A stretch of DNA of 38,711 nt from an uncultured Gammaproteobacteria bacterium (GTDB taxonomy: Bacteria > Patescibacteriota > Patescibacteriia > Patescibacteriales > GWC2-42-12), in NCBI GenBank assembly GCA_964560005.1, contig CAZLKB010000003.1, positions 1 through 38,711 of the forward strand, read 5' to 3'. The notes below the pieces were generated by a model. That model saw only the letters and a program-made list of their open reading frames with translations. It was not told the origin of the DNA and did not search any database. Each line of letters opens with the position of its first letter. Position 1 is the stretch's first letter. Of this stretch, positions 23,753-31,058 are shown piece after piece. The position numbers and the translations under genes were made by a program.

Positions 23753-26700
23753 TTACCGTTTCGCGCCCGAATAAGCGATTGCGCGCACGATGTCCCAATC
23801 AACGGCTGATACCGGAGCGCGCCGAAAGAAATGCTTATAGGCTAAAATCGCGGCTTTTTCCGAGTTTAAATTGCGCTGGCTCGGCCTTAAGCCGTAAGCG
23901 ATCACCGTCACGGCCGCGTTCTCATTGGCGTTGGCCATATTGGCGCCGCGGCCATAGACTTGCTTAAAGAAAATATTGGCTTGATTTTGCGCCTTGTCGC
24001 TGCGCTGGTTGGGCCATCTGCCATTAGCGATTTTTATCGCGTCTTGCCAGGTTTCCGGGCTATTTGGCAATTTGCCAAAAGCCGAGAGATAGGAATTTAA
24101 GACGCCGGCTCTTTCACCCGCGCCCAGCTTAACGGTTGACGGCGTGCCAAAATGAAGAAAATAAGCAATGGCATATTTATCCTGATTGGATAATGGGTTA
24201 GGACTTTTTTTACTGATTAAATCATAGAGAGCTTTAGTCGTCGCCGACAAGTCAACCGGCCGGTTATATTCAAAAACCGCGGCCGCGTCGGAAAAAATTT
24301 GTTCTAACTGCGTAAGCGCCGGGGCGGCAGCCGGCTCGGGATTATCAATTTTTTCCCCAAGGACTATAATGTCGCAGACTTTTGAACTGTCCAGCTGCTG
24401 CGCCGTAGTCAGAGTGCAGCCGGCCGGCAGGCTGGTTGAAGCCGTACGATATTGACGGCCGCCAACGCATAAACCCCAATCTCCGTATGTAACATTGGTA
24501 CAGTAAGTGGTCTGCGAACCTCCTCCACCACCACCACCACCACCACCTCCGCCACCACCACCACCACCTCCGCCACCACCGCCGCCTGATTGGGTGGTAG
24601 CGGAAACCTGGCTGGATTTAGCTGATATGTTATTAGATGCGTCATAAGCAGACACGGAATAAGTGTAAGCTGTGCCGGCAGCTAAACCGGTATCAGAGTA
24701 GCTATTGGCTGTTGAAGTGGCGACTTGAATGTTGTTTCTAAAAAATTTGTAGCCGGTTACGCCAATATTATCAGTTGACGCGCTCCAGCTCAAATTAATC
24801 TGAGAAGTTGAAATCACCGTTGCGGTTAGGTTGGCCGGTACGGACGGAGCGGTGCTGTCAAAACTGACTGTTACTATATAAGCTTGAGTTGAGTTATCAG
24901 CCGCCGTGACTGTATAGGTAACCGGATCAGTGAAATCCTGCAATGCTCCGGAGGCCGGACTAACTGAAGCCCCGCTAGAAGTCGCGATGGTCGGTGCTAG
25001 GGCTGTAACATCCGTTCCTAAAGGTACAGTTACAGCGATAGTGTGGGCAGTTTCATCAATTACGCCGGTTGCGGCCGGAGAAGCGAAGCTGAAGGCGGTA
25101 ATGGCCTTGGCCGGATTAGCCGCTACTGTTACCGTAACGACATAAGCTTGAGTTGAACTGTCAGCCGCAGTAACTGTATAGGTGACCGGATTGGTAAAAT
25201 TTGTGGCTGCGCCTGAAGCCGGGCTGACCGAGGCGCCGGTAATTGTAATAGTAGGTGTCAGCGAAGTCACGGCCGTGCCGAAAGGCACGCTAACCGCGAT
25301 GGTTTTCGCGCCTTCGTTGATTACGCCGGTTGCGGCCGGAGAAGCGAAGCTGAAGGCGGTAATGGCCTTGGCCGGATTAGCCGCTACTGTTACCGTAACG
25401 ACATAAGCTTGAGTTGAACTGTCAGCCGCAGTAACTGTATAGGTGACCGGATTGGTAAAATTTGTGGCTGCGCCTGAAGCCGGGCTGACCGAGGCGCCGG
25501 TAATTGTAATAGTAGGTGTCAGCGAAGTCACGGCCGTGCCGAAAGGCACGCTAACCGCGATGGTTTTCGCGCCTTCGTTGATTACGCCGGTTGCGGCCGG
25601 AGAAGCGAAGCTGAAGGCGGTAATGGCCTTGGCCGAGCTTTGCGGAGCGGTATAAGTAACTGTGATTGAATCAGTCGCCGTATTGCCGGCCGCGTCGCGC
25701 GCGGTAAAAGTAATTATGTTATCGCCGCTGATTAAACCCACGCTGGCCGTCCAGTCGGTCGTGCCGCTGGAGGAACCGCTCAGGCCGCGGTTGCTTACCC
25801 AGGTAACTGAAGTAACGCCAACGTTATCTGCAGCCGTGCCGCCGATGGCCAGAGGCGTAACCGCGGTACTATAGGTTGAATTGCTGGTTGGCGAAGTAAT
25901 GGAAATTCCCGGATTAACATTATCAACAATCGTTACTGTGGCAGATTCCCAGGTAGCGGGTATTAAATCATAAGACGGCCAGGAGACATATAAAGCGCTA
26001 AAAACCTCATCAAATGTAAAATTATTACTGCCGATTGAGTCGGCGGTAAAATTTAAAACAATTATATCGGCTGAACCATTAACTGCTTGCGGTGAATCAA
26101 TATTTGAATTGGCTAATACATTCACGCAACTTGGAGTTATATTAAAATCTATATCATAGCAATCACCGAGATAAACATCCCAGCCGCTATCAATCATGTC
26201 TTGCGGTATATTAAAATCAATGTAACTTAATTTTGTATTATCGTAATTAATGTTTACATACAGGTTATCTAAATCAGTAACATTGCCGACCCTTAAAGTA
26301 ACGGTAAGACTATCTCCTAAATTTACATTTTGGCTGGCCGGATTCAATGAAACAACCGCCAGAGCTGGCGCGTAAGTTATGGTTACTGTTTCGGCCGCGG
26401 TATTGCCGGCCGTATCGGTAGCGGTTACCGTAATGACATTATCGCCAACCGACAAAGGCGCGTCAAAAGTCCAGTCGCCGGAACTTAAAGTGGCTGTTCC
26501 GCTGCCGCCCTGGTCGTTGGACCAGGCGACTTGATCGACCTCAACATTATCCGCGGCCGTGCCGGTGATAGTAACCGGCGAGGCATCGGTTGAACCCGCC
26601 GCCGTGCTGATGGCTAAAATCGGATCAATCGCGTCGGCGGCCGCCACCGTGATTGCCTGGCTTAGGCTGGCGTTAAGGGAAGCTTCTTCGGATGTGGAAG

Positions 26701-27145
26701 TATCATAATATTCAATATCTACAAAAGTTAATAAAGTGGCGCCGGCGCCGGCTGCGGTAAAATTCAGCCTGGCTAAAATTGTGGGCGTGCTTACCTCCAA
26801 AGGCCCGCAGCCTTGACGAAAGACCTGGACAAAAATAGTACCGGTTTCCGCGTTATACGGATCCGACCAGGCTACGGCGCCTCCGGTACAGCCTCCGGAA
26901 AGCGATCCGGCCGATACTTCCACGCTGGTTAAATCAATTAATGAGCTATCAAAGCTGATTTCAAAGTTTCCGTTATAAAAAGTAGTGTCAGCGGATTGCG
27001 CCACGATATCAGCCGTAAAGTTCTGGCCAACCACCAAGTTTTGATGGTTTAAATTAAAACTTAAATCAGTTGCCGCTGAAACTGATTTAGGCAGAATAAA
27101 AAATAAAGATAACAGAAAAAATGAGATTACTATTGATTTTTTCAT
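23753..27145 (-). CDS. Large secreted modular surface protein (two cohesin-like, Ig-like, three beta-repeat and FN3 domains, poly-Gly linker, Cys module, C-terminal domain)
   Basis: Signal peptide, 'V..G..FT..I......I.FD...L...V' cohesin-like pattern twice, 'ITGTAADNV.V..V.W' Ig repeats, 'AKAITAFSF' repeats and 'PSVPANLTA...INLSW.ASTDN.GV.GY' FN3. Confidence 0.85.
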   Translation of the reverse strand: MKKSIVISFFLLSLFFILPKSVSAATDLSFNLNHQNLVVGQNFTADIVAQSADTTFYNGNFEISFDSSLIDLTSVEVSAGSLSGGCTGGAVAWSDPYNAETGTIFVQVFRQGCGPLEVSTPTILARLNFTAAGAGATLLTFVDIEYYDTSTSEEASLNASLSQAITVAAADAIDPILAISTAAGSTDASPVTITGTAADNVEVDQVAWSNDQGGSGTATLSSGDWTFDAPLSVGDNVITVTATDTAGNTAAETVTITYAPALAVVSLNPASQNVNLGDSLTVTLRVGNVTDLDNLYVNINYDNTKLSYIDFNIPQDMIDSGWDVYLGDCYDIDFNITPSCVNVLANSNIDSPQAVNGSADIIVLNFTADSIGSNNFTFDEVFSALYVSWPSYDLIPATWESATVTIVDNVNPGISITSPTSNSTYSTAVTPLAIGGTAADNVGVTSVTWVSNRGLSGSSSGTTDWTASVGLISGDNIITFTARDAAGNTATDSITVTYTAPQSSAKAITAFSFASPAATGVINEGAKTIAVSVPFGTAVTSLTPTITITGASVSPASGAATNFTNPVTYTVTAADSSTQAYVVTVTVAANPAKAITAFSFASPAATGVINEGAKTIAVSVPFGTAVTSLTPTITITGASVSPASGAATNFTNPVTYTVTAADSSTQAYVVTVTVAANPAKAITAFSFASPAATGVIDETAHTIAVTVPLGTDVTALAPTIATSSGASVSPASGALQDFTDPVTYTVTAADNSTQAYIVTVSFDSTAPSVPANLTATVISTSQINLSWSASTDNIGVTGYKFFRNNIQVATSTANSYSDTGLAAGTAYTYSVSAYDASNNISAKSSQVSATTQSGGGGGGGGGGGGGGGGGGGGGGGSQTTYCTNVTYGDWGLCVGGRQYRTASTSLPAGCTLTTAQQLDSSKVCDIIVLGEKIDNPEPAAAPALTQLEQIFSDAAAVFEYNRPVDLSATTKALYDLISKKSPNPLSNQDKYAIAYFLHFGTPSTVKLGAGERAGVLNSYLSAFGKLPNSPETWQDAIKIANGRWPNQRSDKAQNQANIFFKQVYGRGANMANANENAAVTVIAYGLRPSQRNLNSEKAAILAYKHFFRRAPVSAVDWDIVRAIAYSGAKR
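24518..24586 (-). repeat. Microsatellite encoding 23 consecutive Gly
   Basis: 69 nt of (CCA/CCT/CCG)n on plus. Confidence 0.95.
25059..25635. repeat. Apparently perfect 261-bp tandem repeat (about 2.2 copies) within the surface protein gene
   Basis: ATTACGCCGGTTGCGG recurs at 25059, 25320 and 25581. No differences found by eye. Confidence 0.9.
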
Positions 27146-27228
27146 ATTTTTTTATTATAATCTTAGTTAAATTTGATAATTAGGCTAACTTTAAATAAAA
27201 ATTTAATATAAATAATTATTATCTAGAT

Positions 27229-27257
27229 ATATTAACATACATTAATTATCTTGTCAA
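27229..27257 (-). promoter_or_regulatory. Sigma70 promoter for the surface protein
   Basis: TTGACA-17 nt-TAATAT with an extended TG. Confidence 0.7.
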
Positions 27258-27360
27258 GGGTAGGTGATTTATCCAGGAACTTCAGGAATAATCTGCGGTA
27301 AATGCACTAAATTTATTAAAAACTGTTTAATTTAAGCTATTTTTTAAATTATTATTATAT

Positions 27361-27395
27361 AAAAAAGCCGTGGATGATTATCAATCTTCCACGGC
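27361..27395 (-). terminator. Intrinsic terminator
   Basis: GCCGTGGA/TCCACGGC stem with a minus-strand U tract. Confidence 0.75.
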
Positions 27396-27402
27396 GCGAT
27401 GA

Positions 27403-28497
27403 TTACTCCGGTTCCTTAATTAAAGGGTCTTCGGCCAGATAGTTTTGAACCATTCTAGCCATGGACGCGCAATTTTTAGCGCAACCGGAGAGATGGCCGG
27501 CCAAACGTCTTGCATCGGCGTCTTCATACGCCTTAAGCATGGCCTTGAAGCGAAACTGGCTTACCTTTGCCCAGGCGTAAAACCATTCATCCGCGATTTT
27601 AGCCTTGCCGATTAAAGACTCAAACTCCTTTTCCAAAAGCCTGATGTCCGTGGCTAAGAGGACCTGAGCCTTATCTGCTCCTTCCTTAATTAAACGGCGC
27701 GCCCGGGCAACGCTAAGCTGGCGGCGACAGATTTCCCGCGCCAGCTTAATCTGAAGTTCGGCTTGGCCAATTAACGCGGTTAATTCTATGGCGTTGGAGG
27801 TTGAGAGTTTTGTCCCCGAAGATGCCGACATCAGCTTTAGAGTTTCTGGCTCCAAATCAGGAATCGCTAGGCGCTTGCTCACCCACCAATAACCGAAACC
27901 GAAGGCTCTGGCAATTGTGGTCTGGCTAATTCCCATGGATACGGCTTGCTTAAGGGCTCGCGCCAGCTCAAGCTCCGTAATCGTCTTAGCCCGATAGCTT
28001 GTTACCGCGGAATTCAGGAAGGCTTGGGCTTGCTGGGCTTTTTCAATCAGCTCGTTGACTATTTCCTGGCCGGAAAGTTGATTAGCCGACTTATCGGCTT
28101 GCTTATCCCGGGTTTTTTGCCAGATTAAGCGGCGCGCTTGTTTTGAGTTTAGATTTTGCCGGCAAATTTCTTTCGCAGTCTCTATTTGCAGCTTAGGCGT
28201 ACCGATGAGGTTGGTTAAGCTTACCGCATTGTCAAGAGTCAGTCTTTTGCCTGACGGCGCTTTCATCAGGGCCAATGTCTCTTGCTCTAACCCTAAAATA
28301 ACCAGATGACAATTGACCCAAAGTTTAGATCTATCAAAGGCGGCCGCGATCGCCCTTGTGCTCATGCCCATATCATGAAGATCCTTAATTCTATAGGATA
28401 AATCAAGGTCAGAGATTGTGTTTCCAAAGTATGCCGTAACGGCGGATGAAAGCAGCCGCTTTACTTTAGCGGCTAACATAGCTTCACGTTTTTTCAT
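27403..28497 (-). CDS. ParB-derived protein with two tandem HTH DNA-binding domains and no CTPase domain (start re-called at 28497)
   Basis: AGGAG 4 nt before ATG 28497. Internal duplication 'ISDLDLSYRIK..MGMSTRAIAAAF.....WVNCHL' / 'ITELELARALK..MGISQTTIARAF.....WVSKRL', which aligns by eye with the HTH region of 29740-30657. Confidence 0.75.
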   Translation of the reverse strand: MKKREAMLAAKVKRLLSSAVTAYFGNTISDLDLSYRIKDLHDMGMSTRAIAAAFDRSKLWVNCHLVILGLEQETLALMKAPSGKRLTLDNAVSLTNLIGTPKLQIETAKEICRQNLNSKQARRLIWQKTRDKQADKSANQLSGQEIVNELIEKAQQAQAFLNSAVTSYRAKTITELELARALKQAVSMGISQTTIARAFGFGYWWVSKRLAIPDLEPETLKLMSASSGTKLSTSNAIELTALIGQAELQIKLAREICRRQLSVARARRLIKEGADKAQVLLATDIRLLEKEFESLIGKAKIADEWFYAWAKVSQFRFKAMLKAYEDADARRLAGHLSGCAKNCASMARMVQNYLAEDPLIKEPE

Positions 28498-28607
28498 AAT
28501 TCTCCTATTAGCTAAATTTTTCAAAGATCATGGTTTATTTCGTAACTTTATATCTATAACACATTATTCACTCTATGTCAACTATATGTCAATATGAAGT
28601 TTCTTTA

Positions 28608-28642
28608 AATAAAAAAACCTCGCGTTTTGCCGCGCGAGGTTT
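28608..28642 (-). terminator. Intrinsic terminator after the AAA+ activator
   Basis: AAACCTCGCG/CGCGAGGTTT stem with a minus-strand U tract. Confidence 0.8.
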
Positions 28643-28678
28643 GTGGTTTATTTGTTTTTAAAGGATTGCTCTCCCCCT

Positions 28679-29743
28679 TTAGAGTTTAATCCCGAACGCT
28701 TCAATTTTTCTATAAAGCGTTTGCCGGCTGATGCCGAGTCTTTTGGCGGTTTGAAATTTATTACCTCCGGTCACCCTTAGCATTTTCACAATCGCCCCTC
28801 TTTGTTCTCGTTCAAGAATATTCACCCCCTCTGCCTCTGCCTCCTGCTCCGAGACTTTTTCTTGCTCGGTTACTTCAGGAGTGATGCGTAAGTGGCAAAC
28901 ATCTATCAGATGATTATTAGCCAGAAGCACGCCTCGGCGAACCGTGTTTTCCAGCTCGCGGACATTGCCGGGCCAGCTGTACCTCATTAGCGCGTCCAGC
29001 GCCTGTTCGGTGAAACCATTCGGCTCCTTATTTTCCTCCGCCGCCCAGAAACGCATATAGCCTTCGGCCAGCGGTAGAATATCGTCCGGCCTATCTCTAA
29101 GCGGAGGAATTTTAACGATCATGCCGTTTAGGCGGTGCATTAAATCCGGCCGCAGCTTTCCTGTTCGTATCGCCTCGTCTAACGGGCGATTGGTTGAGGA
29201 GATTACCCGGCAGTTAACCTTGTATTCAACCGTGCCGCCCACCGGACGGACTCGGCCTTCCTGCAGGACTCGCAAGAGTTTAGCCTGCGCGGCCAGATGC
29301 ATTTCCGAAACCTCGTCCAGATACAGCGTGCCGTTTTCGGCTTCCCGAAACAACCCTCTGCGTTCTGCGGTGGAACCGGTGTATGCACCCTTGAGCGAAC
29401 CGAATAGCTCGCTTTCAATCAATTGCTCCGGCAATGCCGCGCAGTTGACGCCGATGAACATTCTATTGGCTCGGATACTGTATTGATGGATAGCGCGGGC
29501 AATAACTTCTTTGCCCGTGCCTGATTCCCCGATGACTAAAACCGGGATGTCGCTACACCTTAGCTTTAGCGCTGTCTGAACGATTTCCCGCATCAACTCG
29601 CTCTCCAGCACTACCGGTTTATCGCGGTGCAGCTTGAGCCCTGGCTCTGCCGGCTGATCGCCCTGGCCGTTGCCGTTGCCGCCGTTGTTGTTGCCGCCGT
29701 TGCCGTTGCAGCGATTTCTGGAAATTTCTACGATTCCATTCAT
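28679..29743 (-). CDS. Sigma54-interacting (bEBP/NtrC-family) AAA+ regulator with Fis HTH and no sensor domain
   Basis: GESGTGKE, ESELFG, GAYTGS loop, LYLDEV, 'RPDLMHRLN', WPGNVRELEN and 'GNKFQTAKRLGISRQTLYRKI'. Confidence 0.93.
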   Translation of the reverse strand: MNGIVEISRNRCNGNGGNNNGGNGNGQGDQPAEPGLKLHRDKPVVLESELMREIVQTALKLRCSDIPVLVIGESGTGKEVIARAIHQYSIRANRMFIGVNCAALPEQLIESELFGSLKGAYTGSTAERRGLFREAENGTLYLDEVSEMHLAAQAKLLRVLQEGRVRPVGGTVEYKVNCRVISSTNRPLDEAIRTGKLRPDLMHRLNGMIVKIPPLRDRPDDILPLAEGYMRFWAAEENKEPNGFTEQALDALMRYSWPGNVRELENTVRRGVLLANNHLIDVCHLRITPEVTEQEKVSEQEAEAEGVNILEREQRGAIVKMLRVTGGNKFQTAKRLGISRQTLYRKIEAFGIKL

Positions 29744-30657
29744 ATTATTTCCTTTCGGCCAGCAGACCCGTTTGAGGCGACCGGCTGATTAATCCATTCC
29801 ATGACGGCGGTTAAGTTTTTTACCGCCGCCTTGAGCTTAGAGGCGACTTCTCTTACTTGTTCAGCCTGGCCGGCCGCGATAATCTCTTTGAATTCCGCCT
29901 CCGGCATGCTGGCCAGCTTATCCAGCCTTGCCACCACGCTTCCAATCGTCAGCGCGAATTCCCTAAACAAGGCCGTCGGCTTTTTCTGCCGCTTGGAAAG
30001 GCAGGTTTGCCTGCCCGTGGCTTGAGTTGCCAAGCGGCGGACATTTCCAACTGACAACCGCCTTTCAAGAGTCGCCTTAGCCAAGGCGACTTTATCGCGA
30101 TCAGGCGCTTTCATTAACTCCAAGAATTGGGATAAAGCCAGCCTATGATCCTTGGGTGTTTCCGGACCAATGAGCTTTTGCAGTTCCAGAGGCGCTTTGA
30201 GTATTTGCAGTCTTTTCCAAACCCAGCCTTGGGTTTGCCCGACCCTCTTCGCCGCTTGGCTCTGGGACAGGTCGCGTTCGTCCATCAGCCTTTTCAGGCC
30301 ATGCGCCACATCCCAGTCCGTAAGCGAATCCCTGGCGATATCTCCAACAAAGGCGATTTCAAACTGCTCCATATCGTCAGCCACTCTAACTACCAAGCAC
30401 AGGACTTCGGTTAATCCAAGTATCTGGGCCGCGTGCCAGCGATTTTCTCCGTTGACCAGCTTATACTTAACGCCGTCAACTTCCTTTTCCAATTCCTTTA
30501 CCATGAGCGGTTCGTTGATCCCGCCCGTCTCCCGGATAGAATCAACCAGGCCTTGACGAAATTCCGGGTCAACAATCGTCCTGGGCTGGTTTTTGTTGGG
30601 CCTGATAAAGCTGACTTTAATCATCTGCATCCGTACTTCTCTATTTATGTCTTTCAT
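29740..30657 (-). CDS. ParB/RepB/Spo0J-family protein (CTPase fold + HTH)
   Basis: 'IRPNKNQPR', 'L..SI...G...P..V', 'GENRWHAA' and HTH 'LSQSQAAKRVGQTQGWVWKRL'. Stop overlaps the next start (ATGA). Confidence 0.9.
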   Translation of the reverse strand: MKDINREVRMQMIKVSFIRPNKNQPRTIVDPEFRQGLVDSIRETGGINEPLMVKELEKEVDGVKYKLVNGENRWHAAQILGLTEVLCLVVRVADDMEQFEIAFVGDIARDSLTDWDVAHGLKRLMDERDLSQSQAAKRVGQTQGWVWKRLQILKAPLELQKLIGPETPKDHRLALSQFLELMKAPDRDKVALAKATLERRLSVGNVRRLATQATGRQTCLSKRQKKPTALFREFALTIGSVVARLDKLASMPEAEFKEIIAAGQAEQVREVASKLKAAVKNLTAVMEWINQPVASNGSAGRKEII

Positions 30658-30736
30658 TCCTTGCCTTGCCTTTCTTTTATTTTGTTTTTTTGGTTGTTGT
30701 TATTTGTTTTTGTTTGTTTGATTTGTTCGATAAATT

Positions 30737-30788
30737 ATTACCGCAGCTTTTAAACTCTCTTTTTAGCGAATCTAAAAGCTGCGGTAAT
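30737..30788. repeat. Perfect 16-bp inverted repeat in the leader of the ParB operon
   Basis: ATTACCGCAGCTTTTA (30737-30752) and TAAAAGCTGCGGTAAT (30773-30788), 20-nt spacer. Confidence 0.85.
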
Positions 30789-30989: not shown

Positions 30990-31058
30990 TTGACTAATTT
31001 TAATTTTTATATTAAGATATAAAGTTAATTTTTGGTGAACTTTTATTTGTGGTATAAT
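30990..31058 (+). promoter_or_regulatory. Two candidate sigma70 promoters for the structured leader and FN3 gene
   Basis: TTGACT-17-TAAGAT (30990-31018) and TG-G-TATAAT (31050-31058). Confidence 0.55.

Follow-up and report, generated by a model that had tools for sequence, protein, structure and literature searches.

ParB is the model for CTP-driven DNA clamps, and its fold has also been put to use in gene regulation. KorB of plasmid RK2, which works with KorA or TrbA, and BisD of ICEclc are ParB-fold DNA binders that regulate genes together with an accessory DNA-binding partner. Both keep the CTPase domain, and their partners are unrelated small helix-turn-helix (HTH) proteins, not ParB domains. 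In the MarA/AraC family and in the two-winged-helix iteron Rep proteins, two heads in each chain read an asymmetric bipartite site, so that a single chain acts as a "pseudo-dimer." ParT (SCP2.04c), from the Streptomyces coelicolor plasmid SCP2, showed that the ParB fold works without CTP: it has no CTPase fold, loads at parS, and needs no CTP to diffuse along DNA (PMC12260392).

In this study, we analyzed a 38.7-kb stretch of DNA, referred to below as the window, and in it a gene whose product, P0001, combines two predicted ParB-type DNA-binding domains (DBDs) in one chain. We asked how this tandem-DBD protein is built, how old its duplication is, which proteins it is related to, and what its surroundings say about its role. 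The features of the locus are collected in Table 1.

Results

The frame of the tandem-DBD gene is intact and opens with ATG. When the first 143 residues of P0001 were compared with the remainder in a BLASTP self-comparison, a single ungapped match was obtained, in which 55 of 117 residues are identical (47%; E 7e-32) at a period of 145 aa. Pfam HTH_ParB (PF17762) matches P0001 in two stretches (E 9.3e-12); in the genome-level scan R2 scores 31.5 bits and R1 20.4 bits, slightly below the cut-off of 22.6. Pfam ParB_N (PF02195), the CTPase domain, has zero matches in P0001 at E<=1, and the QPR and GERR motifs, sought in its sequence, are absent. In an alignment, the ENxxR-box helix of ParB is present in each repeat, with the catalytic residues replaced. 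Both DBDs are basic, with a pI of ~10, and the recognition helix of R1 is the less basic one. The N terminus is very short, with 8 residues ahead of the first helix, and PADLOC left the protein unmatched. An earlier note on this DNA, made by eye, had described an internal duplication and the lack of a CTPase domain with its NQPR and GxxR boxes, and both descriptions are borne out by these comparisons.

Table 1. Coordinates of the features discussed in the text (positions in the window unless another locus is named)
Feature	Position	Strand	Basis
Tandem-DBD gene P0001 (364 aa), stop codon included	27403..28497	-	ORF and Pfam
Repeat 1 (R1, aa 9-125): pre-helix and predicted complete ParB-type DBD	28123..28473	-	BLASTP, AF2, Foldseek, HTH_ParB
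Repeat 2 (R2, aa 154-270): pre-helix and predicted complete ParB-type DBD	27688..28038	-	BLASTP, AF2, Foldseek, HTH_ParB
R1 HTH, aa 46-68, STRAIAAAFDRSKLWVNCHLVIL	28294..28362	-	Model helices H47-53, H58-67; segment identities
R2 HTH, aa 191-213, SQTTIARAFGFGYWWVSKRLAIP	27859..27927	-	Model helices H192-199, H203-210; segment identities
C-terminal three-helix domain, aa 276-357, presumed oligomerization	27427..27672	-	AF2 pLDDT 96-98, hhalign
Full-length orphan ParB-like protein P0002: ParB_N, HTH_ParB, helical tail, GENRWHA box	29740..30657	-	Pfam, tree
Receiver-less sigma54-activator-type AAA+ protein (bEBP) P0003: GAYTGS loop, Fis-type HTH	28679..29743	-	Pfam
P0080, 343 aa, between the ParB-like/bEBP pair of L039	L039:9000-10031	-	JGI 3300049489 contig Ga0499958_0001117
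Shine-Dalgarno AGGAGA, 3 nt ahead of ATG of P0001	28501..28506	-	Read directly from sequence
Predicted sigma70-type promoter of P0001: two TTGACA, -10 TATAGA	28553..28592	-	Sequence
Intrinsic terminator closing the ParB-like/bEBP operon, upstream of the P0001 gene	28615..28642	-	-15.7 kcal/mol, z -4.0, U7
Intrinsic terminator of the tandem-DBD gene, downstream	27361..27395	-	-17.8 kcal/mol, z -4.1, U6
13-mer AGATATAAAGTTA, P0001 promoter at -10/+1, candidate operator	28543..28555	-	Genome word search
13-mer AGATATAAAGTTA, second copy, fn3 surface-protein promoter	31015..31027	+	TTGACT 30990-30995, N17, TAAGAT 31013-31018
Near-perfect palindrome of 52 nt ahead of the ParB-like operon, candidate operator of the island or loading site	30737..30788	.	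-32.2 kcal/mol, z -8

In the full-length AF2 model, R2 and the tail reach a pLDDT of 96-98, and R1 is placed poorly because all homologues in the alignment covered R2 only. Residues 1-143, which contain R1, were modelled separately and reached a pLDDT of 95.7 and a pTM of 0.85. Foldseek searches against the PDB, a check that the earlier note had proposed for each half, returned an identical list for the R1 and R2 models, consisting of 1vz0 (T. thermophilus Spo0J), 6t1f (Caulobacter ParB-parS), 6y93 (the isolated Noc DBD), 6s6h (a ParB DBD), and 1r71 (the KorB DBD). The rmsd to 6t1f is 1.8-2.2 Å, the TMt to 6y93 is 0.81-0.86, and across the ParB/Spo0J/Noc structures overall the TM is 0.6-0.86 at an rmsd of 1.8-2.8 Å over ~110 residues. 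Both halves are of the ParB type by the HTH_ParB profile as well as by fold, and since both models match the DBDs of ParB, Noc, and KorB, each repeat is by these criteria a whole ParB M domain, or complete ParB/Noc/KorB-type DBD. A long, confidently modelled helix precedes each of the two.

The last 90 residues of P0001 form three helices, for which no match to the canonical ParB C domain was seen. A joint profile of the tails of P0001 and its relative P0004 (described below), which are 44% identical, was aligned by hhalign with a profile of 38 ParB-like tails that includes that of the neighboring P0002. The result (93% probability, E 3.5e-7, 75 columns) agrees with the resemblance to the tail of the neighboring ParB that had been seen by eye; the tails of P0001 and P0002 are ~15% identical.

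At the DNA level, R1 and R2 are only 50% identical, and the same codon is used at 19 of their 55 identical residues. The locus was found in DNA runs only, two of them, which are identical there; in an independent public sludge-metagenome run, a contig of 8.7 kb spans it with zero differences. The low DNA identity and the independent contig together argue that the duplication is real and old and not an artifact of assembly. Between the repeats, the method of Nei and Gojobori gives a saturated pS of 0.85 and a pN of 0.39. This limited pN against a saturated pS points to an old duplication whose two repeats have both long been held by purifying selection; the earlier note had made its reading depend on such selection among the homologues, of which there is essentially one.

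The divergence of the repeats is uneven. Identity is 23% in helix a1 and 29% in the turn and recognition helix (DRSKLWVNCHLVIL vs GFGYWWVSKRLAIP), against 55-67% in helices a4-a7. The pattern suits two heads that differ in their DNA specificity, as the earlier note had supposed when it described differing recognition helices in a single-chain pseudo-dimer for a nonsymmetric site. It could also reflect the relaxation of one head; given that the Pfam score of R1 is below the cut-off and its recognition helix less basic, one head could be degenerate.

The family to which P0001 belongs has effectively two members. Among 5.8 G protein clusters, a word-indexed search with the P0001 sequence and profile returned P0001 and P0004 alone, and an exhaustive phmmer search of 1.84 G representatives (E<=1e-3) gave 52 matches, all of them single-domain, with P0004 as the sole close one. 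P0004 is an apparent 218-aa form that has one DBD and the same tail, has no ParB_N, and is 45% identical to residues 154-355 of P0001; it lies on a 944-bp contig of JGI sample 3300075153, where it shares 14 nt with the gene upstream. The other phmmer matches are orphan ParB-like proteins of full length, in which QPR and GERRWRA motifs accompany one DBD and a helical tail of a similar kind. The 1.8-5.8 billion proteins searched yielded no second tandem form, the reach of the search being this ParB-like subfamily.

Profile scans of metagenome and genome contigs yielded no further relative of P0001, tblastn with P0001 gave no match in plasmids, and the gene is absent from 60 related genomes, where full-length ParB-like proteins only were found, in G003 and G024; the one in G003, a genome of the same genus, is the orphan ParB-like protein P0008. 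In a screen of 401 genomes of the phylum for tandem PF17762 matches, four genomes with 2-4 matches each (G260, G391, G459, and G334) were rechecked, and in these four, two matches were never found in one ORF. P0010 (233 aa, "HTH_ParB only") was considered as a second HTH-only relative and rejected as a truncated gene call: at its locus (L138:4800-5702; ENA ERZ28563774 scaffold_86), the ParB_N motifs QPR and GERRWRA lie just upstream, beside an N-run. ParB entries that appear to lack the N domain in such collections need checking, as this example shows.

In a maximum-likelihood tree of the DBDs (IQ-TREE, 121 columns, 53 rows), R1, R2, and P0004 form one clade (100/98) nested among the orphan ParB-like family (P0005-P0054), and R1 and R2 are sisters inside it (100/48). 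The neighbor P0002 pairs with P0025 in another clade (99/95). P0001 and P0002 are recognizably related, at 23% identity over 218 aa (E 1e-6) in a match that extends into the tail, so the likeness that the earlier note had seen between them is real. Its further claim, that the gene is a paralog of the neighboring ParB, did not survive the phylogeny it had called for: the separate, well-supported clades indicate that the P0001 gene is no copy of P0002, and a local duplication of the neighbor is not supported. The topology implies instead that the N domain was lost in, or before, the common ancestor with P0004 and that the duplication arose in the P0001 lineage.

The genome comprises 1.14 Mb in 12 contigs and is 97.6% complete. 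The window is chromosomal and carries housekeeping genes (aminoacyl-tRNA synthetases, GreA, ClpB, Ddl, Def, and Fmt). The tandem-DBD gene is part of an island in which the ParB-like gene, the bEBP gene, a terminator, the tandem-DBD gene, another terminator, and a gene for an 1130-aa surface protein follow one another, all on the minus strand, and a gene for an fn3 surface protein diverges on the other side. GC in this block is 0.49-0.53, versus 0.42 in the genome and 0.42-0.44 in the housekeeping genes compared. The P0002 and P0003 genes overlap by 4 nt. Sigma54 (rpoN; Sigma54_DBD, Sigma54_CBD) was sought in the 97.6%-complete genome and ParA (ParA/CbiA/AAA_31) among the ORFs of the window, and neither was found; a canonical ParB is encoded elsewhere on the same contig as P0001.

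The bEBP P0003 has no receiver or sensor domain, its Gly/Asn-rich N terminus is encoded by 15-nt tandem repeats (29666-29712), and its AAA+/HTH part matches the PADLOC model RtcR_PspF2 at 1.5e-100. In the 1130-aa secreted protein (23753-27145, minus strand), three DUF5018-type repeats that are nearly identical occur together with Ig/fn3 domains and an unbroken row of ~23 glycines.

The pairing of a ParB-like gene with a bEBP gene is rare. The survey of co-occurrence that the earlier note had suggested found one other instance, L039, whose ParB-like protein and bEBP share 38% and 50% identity with P0002 and P0003, respectively, and this locus has no ParB-type third gene. The protein encoded between the two, P0080, consists of three tandem DnaA-domain-IV-like HTH repeats that share 34-35% identity (E 5e-15 and 7e-10; Pfam Bac_DnaA_C 7e-7). 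It is a nonhomologous counterpart of P0001, with repeated HTHs in a single chain and unrelated HTH domains, and the two cases hint that a repeated-HTH protein is functionally linked to the ParB-like/bEBP pair. Among 401 genomes of the phylum, 12 have bEBPs, and none of these 12 has a ParB-like gene beside the bEBP gene; the best 80 bEBP loci in GTDB genomes likewise have no ParB-like or tandem-HTH neighbor. The word-search matches of P0002 are ordinary Spo0J, and a metagenome scan with P0002 and P0025 recovered generic ParBs only. Members of the orphan ParB-like family tend to adjoin transcription factors, not ParA. One of them, P0044 (L043:5308-6880; Logan SRR32573209), is encoded beside lexA and follows a sigma70-family (r2/r4) gene at a distance of 10 nt.

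Upstream of the tandem-DBD gene, the promoter comprises TTGACA (28581-28576), a 17-nt spacer, and TATAGA (28558-28553), and a second TTGACA (28592-28587) lies 11 nt from the first. The hairpin of the downstream terminator spans 27395-27367. The AGGAG, the promoter, and the terminator listed in the earlier note were thus all recovered, together with this second TTGACA and the terminator upstream, and the gene is predicted from these signals to be monocistronic. The architecture that the note had drawn, of two tandem ParB-type DBDs without a CTPase domain, a ParB-family tail, and a transcription unit of its own, held.

The 13-mer AGATATAAAGTTA occurs exactly 2 times in the 1.14-Mb genome, once in the tandem-DBD promoter and once in the fn3 surface-protein promoter. 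Both copies begin inside the -10 hexamer and run along the direction of transcription, which suggests an operator common to the two genes or a promoter that was duplicated. The sharing is a single coincidence, for which ~0.1 chance matches were estimated over all of the intergenic DNA of the island, and fewer given the matching position. Of the 11 genomic copies of CTGCGGTAA, the core word of the palindrome that precedes the ParB-like operon, 4 fall within 26752-30788, and words related to the palindrome occur at 27293-27301 and 26752-26760. One CTGCGGTAA copy lies upstream of the promoter of the 1130-aa surface-protein gene, and TAATTAG[GC]CTAA is common to the palindrome region and the region upstream of that promoter.

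Discussion

The account that we favor, and consider moderately probable, is that P0001 is a selected, static, two-headed binder of the ParB superfamily that reads a bipartite site and probably regulates the local island. The protein would have lost the N-terminal CTPase/clamp domain and doubled the whole DNA-binding (M) domain, giving a predicted layout of an N-helix, a first DBD, a long helical connector, a second DBD, and a three-helix C-terminal domain of the type seen in the family. Because it has no nucleotide switch, P0001 should be unable to act as a CTP-gated sliding clamp, and it is most likely a static, nucleotide-independent, sequence-specific DNA binder. Because the two HTH heads of each chain are not identical, the site that they read would be bipartite and nonpalindromic. 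The homology of the tail to ParB-family tails suggests that it may join two chains. The most probable job of such a protein would be the transcriptional control of the island, with its genes for a ParB-like CTPase, a sigma54-activator-type ATPase, and surface proteins. Judging by the DNA sequence, both its own promoter and the fn3 promoter, which share AGATATAAAGTTA at -10/+1, may be among its targets.

A more elaborate version of this account, which we regard as rather improbable, has the pseudo-dimer read an asymmetric site in the island, engage both the ParB-like clamp and the AAA+ activator through its tail or pre-DBD helices, and fix the loading or stopping of the clamp. If this were true, the island would give this CPR bacterium a ParB-based transcription switch made of three parts, and the nonhomologous triple-HTH protein would fill the corresponding role in L039.

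KorB of plasmid RK2 is locked by a small partner, and P0001 could similarly be a partner or an antagonist of P0002, one that forms hetero-oligomers with it through the C-terminal domain or competes for its sites and thereby anchors, loads, caps, or poisons the clamp. We think this role, which the earlier note had raised as that of a dominant-negative or loading partner, unlikely, if still worth weighing. The P0001 gene lies ~1.2 kb downstream of the P0002 gene on the same strand, but a terminator stands between them and the P0001 gene forms its own transcription unit. Homologous tails would provide a means of association, although their low identity is less than would be expected for specific heterodimerization, and the two proteins belong to different clades. 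In their recognition helices, R2 (WWVSKRLAI) and P0002 (GWVWKRLQI) share WV-x-KRL-x-I, with a K at a position occupied by Q, M, or V in the rest of the family members shown. The L039 cassette, too, contains a multi-HTH protein, yet that third gene is not of the ParB type.

It is very unlikely that the tandem-DBD gene is what remains, decaying or without function, of a ParB-like gene that came with a horizontally acquired island. The gene is a near-orphan, with one relative in billions of proteins and none in the 60 related genomes, and the GC of its block is raised, as such an origin would have it. However, its 364-codon frame is intact and has good expression signals, both repeats are predicted to fold with confidence, and a pN far below the saturated pS argues that the ORF has stayed open and been conserved ever since the duplication, itself very old.

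Also very unlikely is that P0001 is a ParT-like CTP-independent centromere binder of a DNA partition or organization system, for although ParT itself loads on parS and diffuses without a CTPase fold (PMC12260392) and the long helix before each P0001 DBD recalls its helix alpha2, the window has no ParA gene, the setting is one of chromosomal housekeeping genes and not a plasmid, P0001 has no sequence similarity to ParT, the genome already has a canonical ParB, and an N terminus of 8 residues leaves no room for a ParA-activating peptide.

As a probable static regulator with two heads, P0001 would offer a natural test of how ParB heads read half-sites once they are free of twofold symmetry, and of how ParB modules get recycled into regulators. 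It is the third DNA-binding component beside a rare cassette of a ParB-like protein and a sigma54-type activator, in a genome without sigma54. Its weight is limited by its rarity, with one genome and one relative on a short contig.

The repeats of P0001 resemble canonical ParB, Spo0J, and Noc (1vz0, 6t1f, and 6y93) in their fold and in Pfam HTH_ParB. Unlike these proteins, P0001 has no N-terminal CTPase domain with its arginine patch, carries the DBD twice per chain, and ends in a family-specific helical tail. With the orphan ParB-like family (P0005-P0054, including P0002 and P0008) it shares DBDs that cluster inside that family and a homologous C-terminal domain, whereas the full-length members have ParB_N and a single DBD. 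In being put to regulation rather than segregation, P0001 may be likened to KorB and BisD, from which it differs in having no CTPase domain. The folds of the MarA/AraC and iteron Rep proteins are unrelated to that of P0001, and the analogy is one of principle only; by that analogy, the site read by P0001, like those of MarA-type and iteron-Rep proteins, should be bipartite and asymmetric.

Like ParT, P0001 has a long helix, a ParB-type M domain, and a C domain and has no CTPase fold. Unlike the repeats of P0001, ParT has no Pfam HTH_ParB match, and BLASTP against SCP2.04c detected no sequence similarity between the two proteins (best E 4.1). ParT has one DBD, is encoded adjacent to parA on a plasmid, and serves partition, whereas P0001 has two DBDs, no ParA nearby, and a place in a different ParB-like clade. 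By these comparisons, P0001 is an independent loss of the CTP switch and not a member of the ParT family. ParB-like proteins without a CTPase domain were already known; what is new in P0001 is the in-chain duplication of a whole ParB DNA-binding domain.
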